A stretch of 48,520 nucleotides of DNA from a virus. Lineage: Duplodnaviria > Heunggongvirae > Uroviricota > Caudoviricetes. This document shows positions 213 through 47,067 of the stretch, one piece after another. Positions within the stretch are counted from its first letter, which is position 1, and each line of letters begins with the position of its first letter. A model generated the notes under the pieces. The model did no database searches, was not told where the DNA came from, and was given only the letters and a program-made list of their open reading frames with translations. The stretch lies in the IMG/VR virus record IMGVR_UViG_2711768004_000012; one strand, given 5' to 3'. The translations under genes and the position numbers were made by a program.

Positions 213-797
213 TTACTCCCTGACAGGGTTCGTAGGCCACTCAATATCAGGTGCAGTTGACGTATCAACACGGTTCAGCAATACCCGATACTTTTTCCAT
301 GCTTCCAGCAACGAGATTTCTTCCTCCGTTGCAATTTCCAGATCTGCAGCATCCTGAAGCGGCGCAATATGCTCACTGGCTACCTGCATCAGGTTGTTTT
401 TTGTTTCTTCCGCCTCCCGGATCCGGAACAGTTTTTCTGCTTCCGTATCCTTCACCCAGGCTGTGCCGTTCCACTTCTGAAACTCCCCTTCCGGCGATAA
501 CCAGGTAACATTTTCCGGTAACGGACCGAGTTCAGAAATAAATAACGCGTCGCCGGAAGCCACGTCATAAACCGTTTTACCCCGATGATCTTCAACGAGA
601 TGCCACGATGACTCATCACTGTTGAAAACAGCCACGAAGCCAGCCGGAATATCTGGCGGTGCAATATCGGTACTGTTTGCTGGCAGACCTGTATGAGGCG
701 GAATATATGCATCACCTTCACCAATAAATTCATTAGTTCCGGCCAGCAGATTATAAATTTTTATGGTCCGTGGTTGTTCACTCATTCTGAATGCCAT
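213..797 (-). CDS. tfa: Tail fibre assembly protein (Tfa)
   Basis: 194 aa ORF starting [24 protein letters not shown], characteristic of lambdoid Tfa; immediately downstream of stf with ATGA 1-nt overlap. Confidence 0.85.
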
Positions 798-3685
798 TAT
801 GCAAGCCTCACAATATAGTTAAATGCGATGTTTTTGACGGTGTTTTCCGCGTTACCAGCAGCGTTAACGGTGATGGTGTGTCCATGTGAACCAATCGCAA
901 CGGAGTGCGTATGAGCACCAATACCGACAGTATGCGCGTGTGCACCTGCAGATGCTGCTGTGCCGGACAGTGAATGGCTATGATTACCATCTATACTGGT
1001 ATTCGCTAACCACCCCGTAGACATACCTACTGAGCCTTGTACACCCCAGGTATTTTGACCTGAGCTTGTATAACCATATTGATAAGTATCTTTAAAAACA
1101 CTGGGGTTAAATCGACGGCCATCTCTATGGCTGTGATTACCAGCTGCATTCGTGCTGCCACTTAAACTATGGGTATGCGCACCAGTGTTATTCGTGGATT
1201 TAGTGCCGTAATCAAACGACGATGTGGTTTTCGTCCCCAAATCCGTACTGGATGCGCTGGCGCTGTGGGTATGCGATTTAATGCCGTCCTGTTCCTGAGA
1301 CAATACGGCCCGACCACTGGCAGGTTTGCCCTTAATCGTCCAGCCACGCATATCAGGGATCACGCCTGACGGATAAGCCGCTGCAAGTTTCGGGTATGCA
1401 GATTTGTCAAAAGCCTGCCCCTGCATCAGGGCATAGCCAGACGGAACGGTATCTGATGGCCACGGGATTGGTGCGCCAGGCGGATAAAACTGCTCTGATG
1501 GCGTATAGAGTGAATAAACTGTACCGTCCGTTAACCCTTCCGGCTTATTAGCAGAATATGCTGGTGACGTATGAATCGTCACGCTGGCATTACTGGTATA
1601 ATCCCATTGAATATTTACACCAGTCGCATAATTTCCGATTGCAACGTAAATATCGTAAGTATCACCAGATGTATTAACCCAGGCAAAATTTGTAAACCCT
1701 GTCAATGTGCGCTGCCATAAAGCACCAGTAATCCCCTTCGGATTACCATTACCTGCACGTAAAACAAGTTCAGATATACCTGCCTGTTGAGGTGACCCCA
1801 CGTTAAATCCAGCGCCACCAATCAACGTAATTGAAACAACAGAACTCGCCTGTGGCATGGTTACCGTTGCTAATTTGAACCAACCAGCACCACCGCTGAA
1901 TGACATTGTTGTTGAGTTAAGCGTACCAATATCTTTCGGCGTCAGTGTTATATCCGCTGAAAGCGCCTTACCATTCACCTTACGGGCAGAAGGTACCCGA
2001 CCATTCGCATTGTCATTAGCTGCTTTCACTGCTTTCGGTGTCGCAGCAAGCGTTTCAGATGTGCTGTTGGTTGCACTACTGAGCTGGACAATTCCTTTTT
2101 GTGCTGTCGTAGCGTCCTGTGCGGTGTATTTCCCGTTAGCCAGGTCATACGCGGCCTTAACGGCTTTTGGCGTTGCCGCCTGTGACTCGGAAGTGCTGTT
2201 AGTCGCACTGCTGAGCTGAACTATCCCTTTCTGTGCTGTCGTTGCATCCTGTGCGGTGTATTTCCCGTTAGCCAGGTCATACGCGGCCTTAGCTGTCTCG
2301 GCGCGCGTTGCCGCGGATTCCGCCGTACTTTTGCTCTGTGCTGCCGCTGCCGCACTGCCAGCAGCCTCTGTCGCCTTCGTGGATGCCGTCGTGGCGCTGC
2401 CCCTCGCTGCTGACGCCTGTCTGGTCGCCTCATCTTTTGAAGCAGACGCAGATGATGCCGATGACGCCGCCGAACTGGCGGACGATGCGGCAGCCGTTTT
2501 TGAGGATTCTGCGCTGGTTTCCGACGCTTTCGCGTTCGTTTCGGATGTCTTCGCTGCGGAAGCAGACCTCGCTGCTGCGCTGGCCTGTTCAGTGGCTTCG
2601 CCAGCCTTCGTTGTGGCTGTTGAAGCGGATGATGCGGCGCTTTCTGCCGATTTTCCGGCGGCGGTGGCACTGACTGCTGCCTCCTCTGCCTTAATGGACG
2701 CCTCACGGGCCGATGATGCAGCTGCTGTCTCAGAGTCTGCCGCAGCTGAGGCGCTCTGTTCCGCTGCCGTTTCAGAAGACTTAGCATTCGTCTCGGACGT
2801 TTTTGCCGCCTTCACGGAATTTCCTGCCGCCGTTGCCGAGGAGGCTGCACTGCTGGCGCTTGTGGAGGCGTTCGTTTCTGATGATTTTGCCGCCTCTTTG
2901 GAGGCCGCCGCATCTCTGGCTGAAGTGGCGGCTTCTGACGCTTTCGTTGTCGCNNNNNNNNNNNNNNNNNNNNNNNNNNNNNNNNNNNNNNNNNNNNNNN
3001 NNNNNNNNNNNNNNNNNNNNNNNNNNNNNNNNNNNNNNNNNNNNNNNNNNNNNNNNNNNNNNNNNNNNNNNNNNNNNNNNNNNNNNNNNNNNNNNNNNNN
3101 NNNNNNNNNNNNNNNNNNNNNNNNNNNNNNNNNNNNNNNNNNNNNNNNNNNNNNNNNNNNNNNNNNNNNNNNNNNNNNNNNNNNNNNNNNNNNNNNNNNN
3201 NNNNNNNNNNNNNNNNNNNNNNNNNNNNNNNNNNNNNNNNNNNNNNNNNNNNNNNNNNNNNNNNNNNCAGATGTGCCGGCATCACTGGCTGACTTCTTCG
3301 CGGCTGCCGTGTTCTGTGCCACCGCGGACGCGTTACGCGCCACCTCTTCCACCATCAGTTCAAAACGGCGCAGAGCCTCCGGACGGGCATCATCCTCCGT
3401 CATGGCACCGAGAAAATCATTCAGCGTACCGGGTCGGGAATCTTCATACACAGTGATGGTCCCGGCATGTGACGGCGGGAATCCTTCCACCAACAGAATA
3501 ACGCTGTACTGACCGTACTCAACGTCCATGCTGTAACGCCCGGCTTCATCCGGATTTTCTGAGGCCAGCGTGTTCACCACCACCGTGGTGCTGTTACGTT
3601 TTGCTTTCAGCTGGATTGTGCAGTTCTGTACCGGTTTTCCTGTGCCGTCTTTCAGTACACCTGAAATCTTTACTGCCATATTCAC
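797..3685 (-). CDS. stf: Side tail fibre protein (Stf-like); interrupted by N run 2954-3267
   Basis: 962 aa ORF; N-terminus [29 protein letters not shown] resembles lambda Stf; long Ala/Ser/Thr-rich central region; C-terminal His/Gly-rich receptor-binding region; followed by tfa. Confidence 0.8.
2040..2300. repeat. Direct tandem repeat inside stf, period about 132 nt (2 copies), encoding a duplicated ~44 aa block
   Basis: Nearly identical DNA, e.g. gtgctgtt...cccgttagccaggtcatacgcggcctta at 2061-2160 and again 132 nt later; protein shows [35 protein letters not shown] twice. Confidence 0.8.
2954..3267. other. Run of N (masked/undetermined, 314 nt) inside stf
   Basis: Literal n characters in the sequence. 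Confidence 1.
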
Positions 3686-4491: not shown

Positions 4492-7400
4492 TTTTGGTCA
4501 CAATCACCGTACAGTCGGTGATATTGCCTGCCCCCTGATTGCCTTTCTGGAAAATCTTAAACTCCAGAGTGACGCTACCACCACCACTAGGCATATCAAT
4601 AACTGCACTGTAACTACCGGGAATGGCCCCTTTAGTTTCTCTGGATGCGATTAATACGCCGTTTTTGCGAACTTCAAAACCATAACCCGTGTATCGCGTG
4701 CCTCCTGGGTTATTTCCGCTCCCCGGATCGTCATACGCTATACCGTTAAAAATAATGGGCGGAATAATAATCTGGCGGTCAAAGTTATGATCATCGCTGA
4801 TGGTGACTGTAACCGTACCGTCTGGTGTTTCCGTGTTACCCCACGTACCGACTTTTTTCGGGAAGGCTTTTGATACAGCTTTAACGAAATCCCCTCTGAC
4901 CTGGGTCGCCTCCAGCATGCCCTTAATCGTACAGTTCTGGTTAATCGTGACATTGTTGAGCGTTCCTGAGTTCGCATTCACACTACCACTGATATCCGCA
5001 TTTTTAGCGGTCAGCTTTCCGTCTGATGTCAGGGAAAATACCGGAGGACTGCCACCGCTGGTAATGGCGGGGGCTGTCAGGCGCTTCAGGAACACGTCGT
5101 TCATGAATATCTGGTTGCCCTGCGCCACAAACATCGGCGTTTCATTCCCGTTTGCCGGGTCAATAAACGCGATACGATTGGCGGCAACCAGAAACTGGCT
5201 CAGCTTGCCTTCCTCCGTGTCCTCCATGCTGAGGCCAATACCCGCGACATAATGTTTGCCGTCTTTGGTCTGCTCAATTTTGACGCCCCACATCGCATTC
5301 CATTTATCGTTAGCGTCCTTCCACTCTTTCGAAAACTCATCCAGTCTGCTGGCGTTATCCTCCGTCAGATCAACTTTTTCCAGCAGCTCTTTACCGAGAT
5401 GGGATTCGGTTATCTTGCCTTTGAAAAAATCCAGGTAACCTTCCGCATCATCGCTCGCCCGACCGACGGCCTCCACGAATGCCGATTTGCCAACGGTGTT
5501 CACACTGCGGATATAAAAGTAATAATCATGGCCCGGTTTGATATTGATACTGGCGGCTATCCAGTACAGCCCCGCGCCAAGGTAGCGGGCTGTGGTTTCA
5601 ACCTGCCTGATATCGGTAATCCGCGTTTCCGAGAACCAGAACTCAAACTGTACCGTCGGATCATAAACCGCAAGATGCGGCGTGGCAGTTATCTGAAAAT
5701 AGCCCGGCGTCAGCTCAATCCGCGACGGTGCTACCGGTGCGGCAATCCTGAACGATACCGACGCCGGATCGCCCTGCTGTCCCCAGGCATTTACCGCCCG
5801 GACTGTCAGCGTGTACCGTCCCAGCGCCAGTTGCGTGAAGCGGTATGTGGTTTCCGTCGTCCGGGCCGTGCTGACCAGCCGCTCACTGCCGTCATCCGCT
5901 GCCACGGTCAGGCGAAGCATAAAGCTCACCCCCTTCACCACCTTCGGCGTGTCCCAGCGCGCCAGCACCTGATATTCCCCGCTGTCTGCGGTGACTTCGG
6001 CAGTCAGGTGCTGCACCGCTGGCGGCGTGACACCATTCACCGTGCCGCTCTGGTCGCCGTCAAAGTGCGCCCCGTTATCCACGATGGCTTCTTTTTCCGG
6101 TACATGCTGCACGGCAGTGATGGCATACGTGCCGTCATCGTTCTCACGGATACTCACACAGCGGAACAGGCGCTGGCGCAACGTCGGCAGCTTCAGCCCC
6201 CACACGCTGTATTCAGCAACGCCGTCAGGAACACGGCTCACTTTCACCTTCACGCCGTCGGTGACGGACTGAACCTCCACGCTGACCGGATTGCCACTTC
6301 CGTCAACCAGGCTTATCAGCATGGTACCGGAGGATGGCAGCGTGATTTCACGGTCGAGCGTCAGCGTCCGGGTCTGGCTGTTTACCGCCAGCACGCGCCC
6401 GCCGATGCTGATACCCGCATAGTCATCATCACAGATTTCAATGACATCGCCCGGCACATGGCGAAGCCCTTCTGCGCCCACGCTGAAGTCCACGGTCTGC
6501 GTTTCCAGCAGTTCTGTTTTAATCAGCCACAGCCCGGCGCGGTGTGCCTGCCCCCGGCTGGTACAGCCAAAAGCATCCATCTTCGTGACGTTACGACCGT
6601 AACGGGCAATGGCCTGCGTATCCTCCACAAGCTCTGTCGCCGTCTCCCAGCCGTTATCCGGGTCAATCCAGTTCACCTCAACGGCATTATGGCGGTCNNN
6701 NNNNNNNNNNNNNNNNNNNNNNNNNNNNNNNNNNNNNNNNNNNNNNNNNNNNNNNNNNNNNNNNNNNNNNNNNNNNNNNNNNNNNNNNNNNNNNNNNNNN
6801 NNNNNNNNNNNNNNNNNNNNNNNNNNNNNNNNNNNNNNNNNNNNNNNNNNNNNNNNNNNNNNNNNNNNNNNNNNNNNNNNNNNNNNNNNNNNNNNNNNNN
6901 NNNNNNNNNNNNNNNNNNNNNNNNNNNNNNNNNNNNNNNNNNNNNNNNNNNNNNNNNNNNNNNNNNNNNNNNNNNNNNNNNNNNNNNNNNNNNNNNNNNN
7001 NNNNNNNNNNNNNNNNNNNNNNNNNNNNNNNNNNNNNNNNNNNNNNNNNNNNNNNNNNNNNNNNNNNNNNNNNACACCAGGCCATGTTGTTGCTGTATGC
7101 TGGTTTTAACGTTCCGTCCCAGATACCGCTGTATTGTCGCGTCTGCGGGTTATAGTTCGACGGCACCTGCAGAATGCGCCCGCGAAGATGATAATTACGA
7201 CTCACCTGCTGGCTGCCGAACTGCTCCGAGTCCACCTGTACGCCGACCAGTGCAGTGTTCGGGTAGCACTGTTTCACATCGATGATTTCGGTGTATGACG
7301 ACCAGAGCGTTTTGTTCTGCAGCTGGTCTGTGGTGCTGTCCGGTGTCATCCTGCGCATCCGGATACTGAACGGGCGCGGAGGCAGGTTATCCACCACCAC

Positions 7401-30339: not shown

Positions 30340-30936
30340 TTTTCCTCACATATGTCATATAGTAAAGGATTATATATACCGTTGTTTTGGACGCTCAAAC
30401 AGCGAATCAGATCAAATAAAACGCACATTTGTTAACATTTACACAAAGTCTGCGTGGGATATTCTGAAAGAATATCCATAATGTGGAGAGAATCTATTGA
30501 AGTGCATGGTGCCGGGTGCCTCCCGGTGAACAAAATGTTCGTGATACCTGTCGGCGACAGAAAAGGTTAATGGTATCACCCCACCGCACAGGGGGATTCA
30601 CCATGCAGGAGTTTTCTTAGCAAACTCACTGCGCGCCCGGCAACTCCCAACCACATAAAATGCGGAGTTTGTGGCATTTATGCATATAACTCGCAGGAAT
30701 TATCTTAAAAAACTGATGTCGATCCGGATTAAAAAGAAGCAGGTCATCATCAGATGACTGGAAAAAAGGAAAACAAAAAATACTCATCATACAGTTTTGA
30801 TTGCAGGGATGAGCCTGCTATGCACAATATGCAGAATATAAGCAAGATAAAAATATGCAGGCATATTATTTCGGATCTTGTTATTAACACAACCTTTTTA
30901 ATAATCATTTGGCATACAATAAACCAGCCCAAAAAG

Positions 30937-34584: not shown

Positions 34585-35586
34585 TTAGTAATCTGCGTGT
34601 TTCGCACTTTTCAGAAATGCTTTCATATTTTCATTAGGTCGCTCAATTTCGAAGTTACTTCCATATAACTCTTGTAATTTTGGCCATAACTTACTTAATA
34701 ACCCTCTCCTGCGATAAAATGGATGTATCCAAACGGTAGATAGGTACGGAGAATTTGCATTTGAATTGTTTATTGTGACCAGCCCAACTAAACATTGTCG
34801 ATAACCACTATTATCCATTGATTGTATTTCTTCGACGAATGGATACGCGATTACATCAGTCCAACCATGATCGGTTGTATCCCATTGCATTCCGTCATGA
34901 CATTCCTTCGACTGATAGCGGCGTAAAGCTACACACGCGAGCTTTTGCCAATCTGGAGAATTAATTGTGATCTCTTCATCGTATGACGCGCCTATTGGAG
35001 CGGGTATTGGTCTGATTAATCCAGCATGGCATTCATCATAGAACTTCATGTTTCCCTCAGAAACGTTGTGTACGTTGGGTTGCTCCATGTGTGCGCCATT
35101 CAAAAATAGCTCTGATAGTAGTGTATCTACACTGTAATCTTTATTGATTATTGTCGGCTTAGAGTTTTTCTTATTAAGGCCGCGAGTAACGATTTTTTGA
35201 TCAATGTTAACAACATGGAATAATCCGTCGGGGAGGCTAGCGAACCACGATGGGGCATCGGACCAGAATAGCATGCCTTTTGTACTTCTTAAGAGTTTAA
35301 TTAAGTTAATACAAGCTTCTTCACTAGTCTTGCCGTTGATGCGAAGTATGTTAGGACTAAAGTAATATTCATCCATATCAGGGAATGCAGCTTCGCAAAA
35401 CTCCTGTACATAATTTAGCACCTGGATTCTACAGAGATCATCATAGCTGGTAATAACTAAGGGGGTATCTTCATTACTATTATGATTATCAATAATGCAA
35501 TCTATAGCGAGACTTACTGCTTTGCGTATCACTTCAGTTGAATCTAACGACTCTAAAAATTTTGTCTTTCGTGTGCGAATATCCAT
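34585..35586 (-). CDS. Hypothetical protein with GNAT-like acetyltransferase C-terminal domain
   Basis: 333 aa; C-terminus ...CLVGLVTINNSNANSPYLSTVWIHPFYRRRGLLSKLWPKL... fits GNAT motif A (beta strand then R-x-x-G-x-hydrophobic); AT-rich; 15 nt downstream of the preceding gene (operon). Confidence 0.5.
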   Translation of the reverse strand: MDIRTRKTKFLESLDSTEVIRKAVSLAIDCIIDNHNSNEDTPLVITSYDDLCRIQVLNYVQEFCEAAFPDMDEYYFSPNILRINGKTSEEACINLIKLLRSTKGMLFWSDAPSWFASLPDGLFHVVNIDQKIVTRGLNKKNSKPTIINKDYSVDTLLSELFLNGAHMEQPNVHNVSEGNMKFYDECHAGLIRPIPAPIGASYDEEITINSPDWQKLACVALRRYQSKECHDGMQWDTTDHGWTDVIAYPFVEEIQSMDNSGYRQCLVGLVTINNSNANSPYLSTVWIHPFYRRRGLLSKLWPKLQELYGSNFEIERPNENMKAFLKSAKHADY

Positions 35587-35601
35587 GTATGACCTGCGCT
35601 A

Positions 35602-36562
35602 TTAAAATTCATGAATGAACGGTTTGTCATCTGGTTGCAAAATGGTGGTTTTATTCGTTGCTACATTTAAACTGTTGTAGAGCATAATTGCCAGGTTCGA
35701 TGCATTTTCAATCAGCGTTTCAAGATCCTGGTCTGTAATCACTACGAGGTTCCCTTCTTTATCCTTTCCACCACGATGCACTAAGTGATTTCGATTGAGG
35801 GTTGCCAATTCAATAGCTTCTATCGGACAGTCTTTTTGTACTTTTATATCGAATGTAGCTTCATAGCGGTCGATTACCTTTTTAGTGCTATGCCAGCTTG
35901 CACTGATCAAGTGTTCCTTGATTGACCTGATTAGCTCTCCCCTAATTTTCTCGATGGGTTCACCCTTGAAAGGCAACGCAGCAATATCTTTGCTTACTTT
36001 AAATTCAGTCTTACCTTTTTCTATACAATTGGCTATGTAGACATCATCTTTCTCTATAGAATTAATGAATAGCTCAACATAAAGCGTTTCCAAAGCTGTA
36101 ATAACATTCGTGTAGAGCAAACTAAGCAAGTGGTTTTTTTGCTGTTGTTCAGTTTTATCTTTTGCAAGTTTTTTTATTTTATCGATATTATCAATGAATT
36201 TTAAATACGGATTACCGGAAGACGTTACAGCGTCGTAGATATCATCATCGTACCAATCATCTATATTATTTGAGTTTCCAGACCAGTCAAAACATTGTGT
36301 TTGTAATTCATCTACTAATTCCTCAATATACTCAGATTTAACATATTGACCGAAGATGGATTGTAGTTCTTCGCTCGCATCATACGGCCCGCCATATATG
36401 TAAGCATAGCCACCTTCTCTACTTTCATACGGACAAGCATTTGCCGGATCTTCAAAGTTTTCAAAGAACCAGTTTTTCATTACTTCGAGTTGATCTTTTT
36501 TGCTTATGTATTTTAAAGATTTTAGTGGAACTTTCTTTCCATTAACCTCGAAAACAATTTTC
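35602..36562 (-). CDS. Hypothetical protein with HEPN-like R-N-x3-H motif (probable GTG start; ORF track extends to 36693)
   Basis: About 320 aa; C-terminal region ...ELATLNRNHLVHRGG... contains R-N-H-L-V-H (Rx4H); SD AAGGGAG before GTG AAA ATT; AT-rich; first gene of a two-gene operon. Confidence 0.45.
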
Positions 36563-36762
36563 ACGATGTAACGCTCCCTTGTATCAATTGCGCAACTATT
36601 ATACCACAGCGAAATACAGGGCATAACCTGCCTCCTTAAACTAACATACCATGAGCCAGCAATGTCCGCTATTGGCACAAAGCGGACAACCACGCTAGCT
36701 CTCCCCTGTGCCAGAAAAATGTCAATTTACATATGAACTAATGCTCTTTGATCTAGTAACGT

Positions 36763-39601: not shown

Positions 39602-40024
39602 TTAATGAACAATGACAGAATCGTCGGAAGACCCGCCGCCGCTGAAATGCGCTTTCCGGTAAACGGCTTGGACTGCATCATCATGCGCATCAATTGCCGT
39701 ACTTAACGCTTCCTGCGCCGCCAGTAATGCACGGCGTTCCAGGGTATCGAAGATGCAGAGTCGGTGACGCAGCTCGCGCGGAAGGATTGCCAGAATTGCT
39801 GGGATCAGCTTCTGAATTTTTTCTCTTTGCGTTTTCGTTTCACCTTTCAACCAACGGTGATAGATATTCTGCTGATTATTCCAGTCCTTGCCTGGTACCA
39901 GGGGCAATTCGCCGCCCCCCTGGCGCAGATATTCTTCAGTAATGGCATTGGCTACCCATGCCTGCCCTTTTTCGGCTGCCAGGGCTAACAACACTGACTC
40001 GATGTGCTCATGCTTGATTTTCAT
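39602..40024 (-). CDS. YdaT-like protein (second gene of the cro-side operon)
   Basis: 140 aa ORF immediately downstream of the Cro-like gene with 4-nt overlap; Rac-type ydaS-ydaT arrangement. Confidence 0.55.
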   Translation of the reverse strand: MKIKHEHIESVLLALAAEKGQAWVANAITEEYLRQGGGELPLVPGKDWNNQQNIYHRWLKGETKTQREKIQKLIPAILAILPRELRHRLCIFDTLERRALLAAQEALSTAIDAHDDAVQAVYRKAHFSGGGSSDDSVIVH

Positions 40025-40275
40025 GAATCAACTCCCATCAGCTTTTTCGTAGTAGTTTTATTTCTGCCAATAGTTAAAATTACATCAGCAGAAAATAATC
40101 CGTTTGATGCATGAGCGATTTTTTCAGCGTAATTTGTTTCGCCGGTATATTCTGTGCGAGGCAATTTTCCGTTATCCATCCATTTGTAGATTGCTCTTTG
40201 GCTGACACCACAAACGTCGGCCACAACAGAAACGCGAACAGTTTTGATTACATCTTCAAGTGTTTTCTGGTTCAT
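40021..40275 (-). CDS. Cro-like HTH regulator (YdaS-like)
   Basis: 84 aa from MNQKTLEDVIKTVRVSVVADVCGVSQRAIYKWMDNGKLP (HTH); divergent from the repressor gene. Confidence 0.65.
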   Translation of the reverse strand: MNQKTLEDVIKTVRVSVVADVCGVSQRAIYKWMDNGKLPRTEYTGETNYAEKIAHASNGLFSADVILTIGRNKTTTKKLMGVDS

Positions 40276-40354
40276 ATCACCCTCACAATGTGAACTTTGA
40301 GTACATGCTATAACAGAACTGACAGTACATTCAAGAGTGAATATCATTGAACTT
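40276..40354. promoter_or_regulatory. Divergent promoter/operator region of the immunity switch
   Basis: 79-bp spacer between divergent HTH genes; contains three GAACT repeats (about 40292, 40316, 40349) and two GTACAT repeats. Confidence 0.5.
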
Positions 40355-40774
40355 ATGGTTCATGAAGATAAAGCGCGTAAAGAGTTCGCCAGTAGGCTTG
40401 CGCTAGCCTGTGAAAACGCTGGTTATGAACAACATGGAAGGCAGGCAGAAATTGCCCGTCGAATGAAATTAACACCAAAAGCGGTTAGCAAATGGTTTAA
40501 TGGCGAAACAATTCCTCGCCGAGAGAAATTAAGGGAATTAGCAACACTCATTGGAACAACACCAACCTATCTTTTGGGAGAGGATACAGAAGAAAGTGGA
40601 CAGGTACGTTTCTATCAGGAGTTAAATCCAAGACAAAAAATCATCATTGACCTTCTGGACGAGCTCCCTGACAGTGAGACAGATGAACTTTTAAAAACTC
40701 TTGAGGAGAAAAAACAGAAGTACAATGCAATTTACGAAGAGCTAGCACGAAAGAAAAAACAAAAAGCCTCTTAA
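40355..40774 (+). CDS. Prophage repressor, XRE-type HTH (RacR-like); alternative GTG start at 40337
   Basis: HTH segment GRQAEIARRMKLTPKAVSKWFNGETIP; divergent from the cro-like gene. Confidence 0.65.
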   Translation: MVHEDKARKEFASRLALACENAGYEQHGRQAEIARRMKLTPKAVSKWFNGETIPRREKLRELATLIGTTPTYLLGEDTEESGQVRFYQELNPRQKIIIDLLDELPDSETDELLKTLEEKKQKYNAIYEELARKKKQKAS

Positions 40775-41064
40775 ACCAGCATAAATCCGGTAGCGTCCCC
40801 CTCCGGGTTTGTGCTTCACTTTATCCCATCTCATTTTTTTACACACAAAATGTACTTATAGTACTTTACATCAATGAACACAAAGTACATTATATACCTA
40901 CCAACCCACCCCGCCCCACAGAACGCAGGGCAATACTTCGAGTTACCAGGCAGTGGTCAGGGGTTAAGTAGCCAGCCCGAGGCGTATGAACATGACGGCA
41001 GGGTTCAGATTTTGCAGTGCAGCAGGTTTCAGTTCCGCCACCCGGCGTTAAGGGGAGAGATAAG

Positions 41065-46779: not shown

Positions 46780-46968
46780 ATGTATAAAATTACCGCCACT
46801 ATTGAAAAGGAAGGTGGCACTCCTACTAACTGGACAAGATATTCAAAATCTAAACTAACGAAATCAGAATGCGAAAAAATGCTCTCAGGTAAAAAAGAAG
46901 CAGGCGTTTCCAGAGAGCAGAAAGTAAAACTGATAAATTTTAATTGCGAGAAACTTCAGTCCTCGTGA
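46780..46968 (+). CDS. ydaC: YdaC-like small protein (start may be at 46768, MEVFMYK)
   Basis: MYKITATIEKEGGTPTNWTRYSKSKLTKSECEKMLSGKKEAGVSREQKVKLINFNCEKLQSS; between ralR and xis as in Rac. Confidence 0.55.
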   Translation: MYKITATIEKEGGTPTNWTRYSKSKLTKSECEKMLSGKKEAGVSREQKVKLINFNCEKLQSS

Positions 46969-47067
46969 ATTGCATTGTATTCAAATTAAAACTTCATAGC
47001 TGATTATTAATAATCAACATCGGGCGTCAATTTAAGTCTAACATTGGCGCCTGCCAGAGGTGATGCG

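Follow-up and report, generated by a model that had tools for sequence, protein, structure and literature searches.

What kind of switch governs lysogeny at this locus, and to which branch of the lambdoid phages does it belong? Positions 39602 to 40774 of the window, by which we mean the whole 48,520-nucleotide stretch of viral DNA that was analyzed, hold three genes that an earlier note had read as an immunity region of the Rac type. The layout it described, in which a short XRE repressor and a Cro-like gene point away from each other and ydaT comes next, is borne out down to the coordinates. The repressor gene lies on the plus strand at 40355 to 40774 (139 aa; HTH, no S24 peptidase domain), the Cro-like gene on the minus strand at 40021 to 40275 (84 aa, also in RefSeq; HK022 Cro family; its ATG at 40275 is preceded by GAGGG at a distance of 4 nt), and ydaT on the minus strand at 39602 to 40024 (140 aa), its start overlapping the cro stop as ATGA. 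Exactly 79 bp, 40276 to 40354, separate the divergent pair. The starts of all three genes are those in the RefSeq annotation of the NCTC10444 prophage, to which the window is 100% identical, with intR and ttcA at the flanks, and whose terminase, tail, lysis and recET genes indicate a full-size element. The region is very probably where a full-size Rac-family lambdoid prophage at ttcA controls the choice between lysis and lysogeny, an immunity switch with a cassette of HK022 specificity.

The relation to Rac is close everywhere except in the switch itself. Prophage family, insertion site and gene order are those of K-12 Rac, there is a YdaT-box at the start of ydaT in both, ydaV is equal in length and position, and YdaU is 99% identical to its K-12 counterpart, although the K-12 prophage is truncated and the one here is full-size. 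In DNA alignment each flank is ~99% identical to K-12 Rac, whereas nothing aligns across an immunity cassette of ~870 bp at about 40030 to 40902, which comprises cro, OR, the repressor gene and OL. Relative to K-12, the genes for repressor and Cro are thus replaced together with every operator, with no meaningful similarity, and where ydaS and ydaT stand 22 nt apart in K-12, cro and ydaT overlap here. A Rac-type ydaS in another frame was considered and rejected, as the DNA of 40030 to 40902 cannot be aligned with K-12. From the alignments, an HK022-specificity cassette appears to stand in place of the K-12 racR-ydaS segment, which fits lambdoid module exchange in either direction.

The Cro-like protein shares 62% identity with Cro of HK022 (E = 2e-34). 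Compared pairwise with K-12 YdaS it gives an E value of 0.028, and the YdaS model PF15943 (cutoff 30 bits) does not match it while scoring 107.7 bits on the K-12 YdaS control, so what had been called a YdaS-like gene does not encode YdaS. A sequence search of the PDB with the Cro-like protein returned no matches. With the repressor at 47% identity to the HK022 cI N-domain (E = 6e-32), the cassette is a lambdoid cI/cro pair of HK022 type, and the statement that the region was not of the lambda cI/cro kind is off the mark, because the 79-bp intergenic length and the layout of the sites match HK022 as well. What survives of the Rac-type assignment is YdaT, which is genuine; the repressor and the Cro-like protein are not homologues of RacR and YdaS.

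Residues 1 to 74 of the repressor form an HTH of the cI type whose recognition helix resembles that of HK022; a linker leads on to a tail of two helices (92 to 138) similar to that of DicA. The recognition-helix residues T40 to E51 are invariant in the family except for V44I in HK022, and V44 is invariant with HK022 omitted. Pfam finds HTH_3 only (E = 2e-9), with no match to the S24 domain (PF00717), for which the HK022 cI control scores 69.5 bits, and alignment with long forms shows the SAGPG motif and the entire S24 domain to be missing from the short forms. Of the marks of a LexA-like lambdoid cI, the N-terminal HTH is present and the S24 peptidase with its Ala-Gly cleavage site is not. The protein instead fits the short, non-cleavable DicA/Gifsy type, whose members have ~135 to 150 aa, join an HTH to a conserved helical tail and carry no cleavage motif. 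Its identity to DicA is 29% across residues 30 to 137, tail included (E = 5e-15), and PHROG 5736 matches it to full length, residues 27 to 139 corresponding to profile positions 19 to 133 of 133. The tail is conserved between the short forms of E. coli and Salmonella (Salmonella homologues are 62 to 65% identical overall) and is modeled confidently by AF2 as two helices (pLDDT 75 to 87). Structural searches say little more: sequence comparison with the PDB gave weak matches to P22 C2 and the 434 repressor, and Foldseek of the model against the PDB gave generic HTH matches only, among them SinR/SinI, the SPC32H repressor and an arbitrium repressor with poor rmsd, leaving the tail without a structural assignment.

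The comparison with DicA has its limits. DicA of the Qin prophage of E. coli K-12 and the Gifsy-type repressors share with the protein here a short chain (135 to 139 aa), an HTH and a conserved helical tail, and lack the Ala-Gly and S24 elements; in Qin, too, the repressor gene is transcribed away from that of a Cro analogue, behind which comes a YdaT-like gene, ydfX being a YdaT-like fragment. However, the DNA-binding domain of DicA and its operators, which are of the TTAGT type, are of unrelated specificity, DicC has no similarity to the Cro-like protein, and the repressor scores 56.8 bits against the NCBIfam DicA subfamily model NF007257, below its cutoff of 101. By sequence, the repressor is a relative of DicA and not its orthologue. 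The description RacR-like holds to the extent that RacR is placed in the same short, non-cleavable class by Lemire et al. 2011 (PMC3121763). It fails as homology: 12 of 33 HTH residues align, and the RacR equivalog model NF049929 (cutoff 200 bits) gives no match at E <= 0.01, against 244.6 bits for the K-12 RacR control.

The intergenic repeats that had been proposed as operator half-sites, GAACT at 40292, 40316 and 40349 and GTACAT at 40301 and 40325, plausibly are such, being parts of three putative operators of the form TGAAC-N5-GTWCA. GTACAT occurs only five times on the plus strand of the entire 48.5-kb window, and GWAC-N5-GTWC matches the window eight times where 1.48 matches are expected; none of 100 shuffles reached eight. 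Five of the eight fall in two short noncoding stretches around the repressor gene, at 40292, 40316 and 40349 and at 40852 and 40876, with a spacing of 24 bp in both pairs (40292/40316 and 40852/40876). The same three OR sites, at offsets of +24 and +33, recur in six further immunity regions, with repressors that are 40 to 100% identical; 26 of 29 half-site columns are invariant compared with 12 of 42 of the remaining intergenic columns, and across the seven loci the half-sites are near-invariant and the central spacers of OR1 and OR3 vary. Given this enrichment, and the conservation of sites at the same offsets with invariant half-sites, the repeats lie far beyond chance.

The predicted sites can be placed individually. 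OR1 (TGAACTTTGAGTACA, 40291 to 40305) covers the start region of the predicted PR and aligns with its HK022 counterpart, OR2 (AGAACTGACAGTACA, 40315 to 40329) lies 24 bp away in the spacer of that promoter, and OR3 (TGAACTTATGGTTCA, 40348 to 40362), a perfect palindrome, overlaps the repressor ATG, and HK022 has the identical 13-mer where its cI gene starts. Beyond the repressor gene, OL2 (TGTACTTATAGTACT, 40851 to 40865) adjoins the -35 of a PL-like promoter and OL1 (TGAACACAAAGTACA, 40875 to 40889) lies 24 bp on, between its -35 and -10. As a set of three OR and two OL sites with TGAAC/GTWCA half-sites, these candidates have the HK022-type spacing. In HK022 the cro-cI intergenic region is also 79 bp long, with three TGAAC-N5-GTWCA sites at identical +24 and +33 offsets, and its two OL sites are likewise 24 bp apart (counterparts at 2432, 2456, 2489, 3264 and 3288 of the HK022 locus, L004); the identity of the HK022 operators is taken from our motif comparison and from the summary in PMC8053113.

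The promoter assignments have, in detail, about an even chance of being correct. The predicted PR of cro-ydaT-ydaU-ydaV, read from the sequence on the minus strand (40307 to 40334), would consist of TTGAAT (40334 to 40329), 16 nt, and TG-n-TATAGC (40312 to 40307); its -10 is nonconsensus, without the final T, and it was not reported by the promoter scan, and it aligns with TTGACT-16-CATAAT of HK022. The scan did report two plus-strand promoters, both overlapping operator sites and both with hexamers at the same places in HK022. A PRM-like CTGACA-17-TATCAT (40319 to 40347; 10 of 12 matched) corresponds to CTGATA-17-TATAGT and ends 7 nt before the repressor ATG, so the repressor mRNA may be leaderless. 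Its -35 (40319 to 40324) lies inside OR2, so that this assignment cannot account for continued transcription of the repressor gene with OR2 occupied. A PL-like TTTACA-17-CATTAT (40865 to 40893), facing ydaG/ydaF, kilR, racC, recET and xis-int, is conserved in HK022 as TTTACA-17-CATCAT.

Outside the shared operator layout, HK022 differs in several respects. Its cI has 235 aa, with an S24 peptidase and SAGPG, where the protein here has a helical tail of ~55 aa; cII follows cro in HK022, whereas ydaT does so here; and HK022 has an extra site between cro and cII (L004 2165) to which the window has no equivalent. An operator with a role in immunity, some 300 bp downstream of OR, is mentioned in the loopometer paper.

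The gene that stands in the place of cII had been called YdaT-like, and YdaT it is: a CII-analogous tetrameric transcription factor, 99% identical to K-12 YdaT, at 44.8 bits against PF06254 (cutoff 21), with a match to PHROG 163, "CII-like transcriptional activator" (E = 3e-37), and PDB relatives 3c4r and 8bt1. The residues H56, R57 and W58, named as key in PMC11879457, are present in the alignment. At 40014 to 40031, covering both the ydaT start codon and the cro stop codon, lies the YdaT-box, a perfect inverted repeat TTGATT-N6-AATCAA that is the sole zero-mismatch match in the window. Its K-12 counterpart at the same place, ATGATTCATGAAAATCAA, has one mismatch and was footprinted by YdaT (PMC11879457); the box here agrees with the CP-933P consensus (PMC9986795), and the function of such boxes has been described for K-12 and CP-933P (PMC11879457, PMC9986795). 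No PRE-like promoter was found by the scan on the plus strand inside cro, downstream of the box. By eye, a TAGTTT can be seen at 40053 to 40058, 21 nt past the box, to which we give no weight. Elsewhere in the window, a sequence resembling the box lies at 47000 to 47017, upstream of xisR. The mosaic joint with K-12 Rac falls at the first base of the YdaT-box, exactly where the cassette meets ydaT.

A related arrangement is found in Tritos, prophage 3 of AIEC LF82, which is a functional, plaque-forming phage (PMC9928086). Its repressor, annotated "CI repressor," is 100% identical to the one here, its cro, OR and OL are near-identical, and an identical YdaT-box stands at its cro/ydaT junction. 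It differs in carrying a CP-933P-type ydaT allele that is 33% identical and annotated "Rha family," other replication genes, a Qin-like dicF/dicB left operon and another integrase. In the lysogen, Tritos cI is expressed 24-fold over the prophage background; ciprofloxacin-induced prophages are named as Gally and Cyrano only, and trimethoprim slightly lowered Tritos production (PMC9928086). More broadly, the cassette taken alone occurs in 1047 of 5426 complete E. coli genomes (19%), at 95 to 100% identity in 1030 genomes, and its bearers include the pathogenic lineages O26, O103, O111 and AIEC LF82. It is essentially single-copy (1055 places in 1049 genomes), the pattern expected from homoimmune exclusion.

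We propose that an oligomer of the repressor would bind the three 15-bp OR operators (TGAAC-N5-GTWCA) and the two more just past its own gene, at OR blocking the rightward promoter of cro-ydaT-ydaU-ydaV and at OL the leftward promoter of ydaG/F, kilR, recET and xis-int, while OR3, lying over the repressor start codon, may provide negative autoregulation. The Cro-like protein presumably works the same operators in the opposite sense, and YdaT, as a CII analogue, would be expected to act at the box at the cro/ydaT junction to drive transcription of the repressor strand during establishment. Where HK022 cI has its LexA-like S24 cleavage domain, the repressor would have acquired a DicA/Gifsy-type helical tail, through which we infer oligomerization to occur, and with the cleavage domain replaced, induction should not depend on RecA self-cleavage. 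Induction might proceed through an antirepressor, in the manner of Rem on DicA, which has no Ala-Gly bond and is inactivated by Rem rather than RecA (PMC10448788), or through a stochastic or stress-driven flip of a bistable Cro/repressor switch. The antirepressor route, drawn by analogy, we offer only tentatively. K-12 Rem found no homologue by tblastn in the window and related loci at E <= 1, no antirepressor PHROG was found among ten accessory open reading frames scanned, and of LexA boxes, which would have pointed to an antirepressor under SOS control, CTGT-N8-ACAG is absent from the window and a relaxed 20-mer search gave only matches with two or three mismatches, none compelling. Antirepressors are small and diverse and may act in trans from other prophages (PMC3121763).

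Might the repressor instead serve chiefly to silence toxic YdaS/YdaT-like proteins, and be essential for that reason, the whole acting as an addiction module of an atypical, toxin-antitoxin-like kind? In K-12, RacR is essential and expression of ydaS/ydaT is toxic (PMC5700373, PMC5700377), and overexpression of YdaT, which is 99% identical here, causes filamentation and death via RcsA (PMC11879457). This framing, taken up in the earlier note, thus has reports from K-12 behind it; it is contested in the literature, where YdaS and YdaT are seen as Cro and CII analogues, through Jobling's critique and the work on CP-933P and Rac (PMC5917428, PMC9986795, PMC11879457). In the present case the Cro-like protein is not YdaS, the repressor of a full-size prophage would also silence kilR, recET and the replication genes, so that essentiality would not be specific to ydaT and would indeed be trivial in an element of this size, and the same cassette operates in plaque-forming Tritos. 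We regard a toxin module as very improbable. Still harder to credit is decay, in which the 139-aa protein would be a truncated, nonfunctional HK022-type cI in a locked or defective prophage. The protein is ~100 aa shorter than HK022 cI and lacks the S24 domain, and K-12 Rac is itself defective; against this stand a tail conserved in Salmonella homologues, homologous to that of DicA and with confidently modeled helices, a full-length family in PHROG 5736, an identical gene expressed in a functional phage, and the presence of the cassette at 95 to 100% identity in 1030 genomes. The truncated-pseudogene reading of the repressor was rejected on the conservation and DicA-like character of the tail.

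A closer competitor accepts the same switch with an operator specificity unlike that of HK022, the likeness of the motifs reflecting common ancestry only and the cassette being heteroimmune to HK022. Central spacers and flanks do differ from HK022, and the C-terminal oligomerization domains are unrelated, so that the two proteins could differ in cooperativity and in how they read the spacing of the sites; strong dependence on cooperativity is reported for HK022 binding, as cited in PMC8053113. The recognition helix, however, is identical save V44I, and the half-sites are invariant in the family, and we consider heteroimmunity to be rather unlikely. Less likely again, in our estimate, is a stronger form of the HK022-specificity reading: a natural domain swap in which a DNA-binding domain of HK022 specificity was joined to a non-cleavable tail like that of DicA, with a dominant function in "immunity hijack" or defense. 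This repressor, very common in E. coli prophages, would then share its operators with SOS-inducible cI proteins of HK022 type while being blind to RecA. If it were true, a resident Rac-like prophage could hold a co-resident or incoming phage of HK022 immunity repressed even during SOS, and the repressor and HK022 cI would form a natural test of cooperativity and looping rebuilt, with an unrelated oligomerization domain, on an unchanged operator layout.

For the preferred reading, an HK022-specificity switch in a Rac-family prophage, the consequences are more immediate. The cassette leaves the current view of lambdoid regulation unchallenged. This reading puts right the logic by which such a cassette, present in about one-fifth of complete E. 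coli genomes, is annotated: its genes are neither RacR/YdaS orthologues nor a toxin-antitoxin pair but a lambdoid switch of the HK022 immunity type, with a repressor of the DicA class that should be insensitive to SOS. It also makes operator and promoter coordinates concrete and testable. With an identical YdaT-box beside the 33%-identical ydaT allele of Tritos, we take the YdaT-box to act as a joint for the exchange of immunity cassettes between different ydaT alleles. Cross-immunity with HK022-type phages would be predicted, as would SOS-independent induction, which may be relevant to the pathogenic lineages that bear the cassette.

The three genes of the immunity region are arranged as an earlier note described, by the ORF listing and by direct reading. 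Two lie on the minus strand, of 140 aa (39602-40024) and 84 aa (40021-40275), and one of 139 aa (40355-40774) on the plus strand, with exactly 79 bp (40276-40354) separating the divergent start codons of the 84-aa and 139-aa genes. GAGGG stands 4 nt 5' of the ATG of the 84-aa gene, whose stop overlaps the start of the 140-aa gene as ATGA, and RefSeq annotates the same three start codons in identical DNA of E. coli NCTC10444, the chromosome of which matches the window at 100% identity, and O26:H11 11368. The window is a lambdoid prophage of full size, inserted at ttcA and carrying terminase, lysis genes, trkG, ydaU/ydaV, sieB, kilR, racC, recE/recT, ralR/RalA, xisR and intR, and its size, site and Rac gene set make it a relative of K-12 Rac, complete where the K-12 prophage is truncated. 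Elsewhere lie the RalA antitoxin sRNA (225 bits; 46786-46964, minus strand), over the ralR toxin gene region as in K-12 Rac; Rfam matches to IS009 (221 bits; 256-454, minus strand), near the tail-fibre end of the prophage, and to the sRNA STnc100 (86.6 bits; 30450-30636, minus strand); and adjacent large ORFs of 333 and 363 aa (34585-36693, minus strand), flanked by the replication genes on one side and the nin-like region on the other, which match only PHROGs of unknown function (16994 and 17908) and are possible cargo or defence genes.

A Rac-type immunity region "rather than lambda cI/cro", as had been proposed, is not borne out by comparison of the divergent pair, which points to a lambdoid switch of the type found in phage HK022. 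The 84-aa protein is 62% identical to HK022 Cro (E 2e-34), placing it by sequence in the HK022 type; it had no match to YdaS (PF15943), for which the K-12 YdaS control scored 107.7 bits, and the label YdaS-like therefore fails. The label RacR-like is likewise untenable for the repressor, as its alignment with RacR was limited to 33 HTH residues and it did not match the NCBIfam RacR equivalog (K-12 RacR control, 244.6 bits). Over its N-terminal ~76 residues the repressor shares 47% identity with HK022 cI (E 6e-32) and ~51% with the corresponding cI domain of 933W-type Stx phages. At full length it matches PHROG 5736, and its sequence is the same (100% identity) as that of the protein annotated "CI repressor" in Escherichia phage Tritos (prophage 3 of AIEC LF82).

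The window repressor ends at 139 aa, whereas HK022 cI has 235 aa with an S24 peptidase domain. In an alignment of long forms (HK022, Raoultella and Klebsiella; 235-240 aa) and short forms (E. coli, 88-100% identical; Salmonella, 62-65%), the N-domain is common to both, with recognition-helix residues T40-E51 invariant except for V44I. It is followed in long forms by SAGPG and the peptidase fold, and in short forms by a conserved tail, E-L-x-P-R-Q-x-I-I-I-D-L-L-D-E-L-P-x-S-E...K-K-K. This tail is homologous to the C terminus of the DicA repressor of cryptic prophage Qin, to which the protein is 29% identical over residues 30-137 (E 5e-15); the match to the NCBIfam DicA subfamily was below cutoff (56.8 versus 101 bits). 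An AlphaFold2 model (mean pLDDT 83) places five helices in the HTH (residues 1-74) and two in the tail (92-103 and 106-138), joined by a linker of low confidence, and a Foldseek search with the model returned generic HTH matches only. On these alignments, the repressor is a composite protein.

Alignment with K-12 Rac gave ~99% identity in two flanks, one running from sieB/ydaF/ydaG to window ~40903 and the other from ~40030 across ydaT and ydaU, with the ~870 bp between them unalignable. This block is made up of the divergent Cro-like and repressor genes, the 79 bp separating them and a further ~130 bp beyond the repressor gene, a cassette replacement that we interpret as classic lambdoid "imm" module exchange. 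Its right-hand joint coincides with the opening base of the YdaT-box described in the literature. Cassette and box recur in Tritos, where they adjoin a different, 33% identical ydaT allele, which suggests that the exchange joint is formed by the box together with MKIKHEHI, the conserved initial codons of YdaT. Tritos gene TRITO_35 (5245-5670 in its locus, L003), annotated "Rha family transcriptional regulator", encodes a mis-annotated YdaT-family protein, which matches PF06254 above cutoff and shares 33% identity with Rac YdaT, and the identical box lies where the gene starts. Among 5426 complete E. coli genomes, the cassette by itself (at least 80% coverage) occurs in 1047, almost always in single copy, and adjoins Rac-type ydaT/ydaU in 618 of them; the K-12 racR-ydaS cassette is about equally frequent (1085 genomes).

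The GAACT (three copies) and GTACAT (two copies) words in the intergenic region, suggested earlier to be operator half-sites, are parts of a 13- to 15-bp palindromic motif. The pattern GWAC-N5-GTWC occurs 8 times in the 48.5 kb, where 1.48 matches would be expected, and a count of 8 was reached in 0 of 100 shuffles. Five of the eight surround the repressor gene: 40292, 40316 and 40349 (putative OR1, OR2 and OR3) on its cro side and 40852 and 40876 (putative OL2 and OL1) just past its stop, with 24-bp spacing in both adjacent pairs. The 79-bp intergenic length and the motif offsets are identical in HK022 (locus L004), where the OR-side matches fall at 2432, 2456 and 2489 and the counterparts of 40852 and 40876 at 3264 and 3288. 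All further loci fetched, from Salmonella, Raoultella and a metagenome with homologues 40-89% identical, keep the OR triple at +24/+33, and in a seven-way alignment 26 of 29 half-site columns are invariant, against 12 of 42 other intergenic columns and 8 of 15 in the central spacers. Such conservation, together with the near-invariant recognition helix, argues that the whole repressor family, HK022 included, reads the same half-site, and motif counts and seven-locus conservation thus lend the half-site proposal good comparative support. As summarized in PMC8053113, HK022 cI binds adjacent operators cooperatively, with OL-OR looping, and uses an extra operator ~300 bp downstream of OR. In HK022 the motif recurs between cro and cII (L004 2165); no counterpart was found in the window. 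One of the three matches outside the immunity region, GAACAAAATGTTC (30528-30540), lies inside the STnc100 match, probably by chance. In the Salmonella prophages whose short repressor is 62-65% identical, the place of the window's OL/PL region, directly 3' of the repressor gene, is taken by a HigB-toxin/HTH-antitoxin pair (L006 4553-5220; L007 4588-5255), and no OL-type site was seen within ~200 bp.

Consensus scanning predicted a PRM-like promoter, CTGACA-17-TATCAT, on the plus strand, ending 7 nt before the repressor ATG, and a PL-like promoter, TTTACA-17-CATTAT, at 40865-40893, both with counterparts at aligned HK022 positions. On the minus strand, TTGAAT (40334-40329), 16 nt and TG-n-TATAGC (40312-40307), picked out by eye, align with HK022 TTGACT-16-CATAAT and are likely PR. 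OR2 occupies the spacer of this predicted PR and OR1 covers its start region, OL1 lies between the hexamers of the predicted PL with OL2 abutting its -35, and OR3 overlies the repressor start. The PRM-like promoter would give a leaderless repressor mRNA, like the lambda cI transcript made from PRM. Because its -35 hexamer (40319-40324) is wholly within OR2 (40316-40328), the simple lambda-style picture of OR2-bound repressor activating PRM does not fit; despite this arrangement, the identical repressor gene is well expressed in the LF82 lysogen (PMC9928086).

The 140-aa protein, which had been called YdaT-like, is YdaT: it shares 99% identity with its K-12 namesake, exceeds the Pfam cutoff and has a match to the PHROG "CII-like transcriptional activator"; YdaU is also 99% identical to its K-12 counterpart. 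YdaT has been characterized as a CII-like tetrameric activator that also switches on host rcsA, and in K-12 it footprints the YdaT-box ATGATTCATGAAAATCAA, which is needed to activate the reverse promoter feeding racR (PMC11879457). The box of the window, its sole exact match, is a perfect palindrome, TTGATTCATGAAAATCAA (40014-40031), equal to the CP-933P consensus (PMC9986795). A one-mismatch box, CTGATTATTAATAATCAA (47000-47017), lies in the gap preceding xisR-intR, ~50 bp 5' of where xisR begins, with TAACAT 21 nt past it, and is conserved in K-12 Rac (L001 2504-2521); by analogy, it could correspond to the lambda CII-dependent PI promoter. The 2025 YdaT paper makes no mention of xisR, excisionase or integrase. 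The repressor gene start, ATGGTTCATGAAGATAAA (40355-40372), found as inverted repeat I1 partnered with 40012-40030, also resembles the box (central CATGAA identical, 8 of 12 half-site bases matching). It may bind YdaT weakly, in the manner of the weak sites footprinted in the K-12 intergenic region, or the resemblance may be coincidental.

That the repressor silences toxic ydaS/ydaT, another claim of the earlier note, is reported for K-12, where racR is essential and ydaS/ydaT expression is toxic (PMC5700373, PMC5700377), but the YdaS half is inapplicable in the window because the Cro-like gene is a different gene. Jobling argued that YdaS and YdaT are regulators, not toxins (PMC5917428), a view backed by CP-933P work (PMC9986795), and in an intact prophage repressor loss would be lethal for ordinary reasons.

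The window repressor lacks an S24 domain. DicA, likewise without the Ala-Gly bond, is relieved by the antirepressor Rem, and its switch also flips spontaneously, independently of recA and rem (PMC10448788). Gifsy repressors of the same size class are inactivated by LexA-controlled antirepressors, and Lemire et al. assign DicA as well as RacR to this Gifsy-type short class (PMC3121763). Tritos, with the identical repressor, forms plaques and virions and transcribes cI 24-fold above prophage background; trimethoprim lowered its production 3.4-fold, and the ciprofloxacin-induced prophages named in that paper are Gally and Cyrano only (PMC9928086). A search of the window found no LexA box, no Rem homologue was found, and none of ten accessory ORFs scanned matched an antirepressor-type PHROG. 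Induction could proceed through an unrecognized or trans-acting antirepressor, or by stochastic or stress-driven switching.

Taken together, these comparisons identify the region as a lambdoid immunity switch of predicted HK022 specificity, with a DicA-class, putatively non-cleavable repressor, joined at the YdaT-box to a Rac-type ydaT. The switch is a new, uncharacterized example of well-known kinds, and its interest lies in the natural recombination of N-domain and tail and in a predicted SOS-blind cross-immunity with HK022-type phages.
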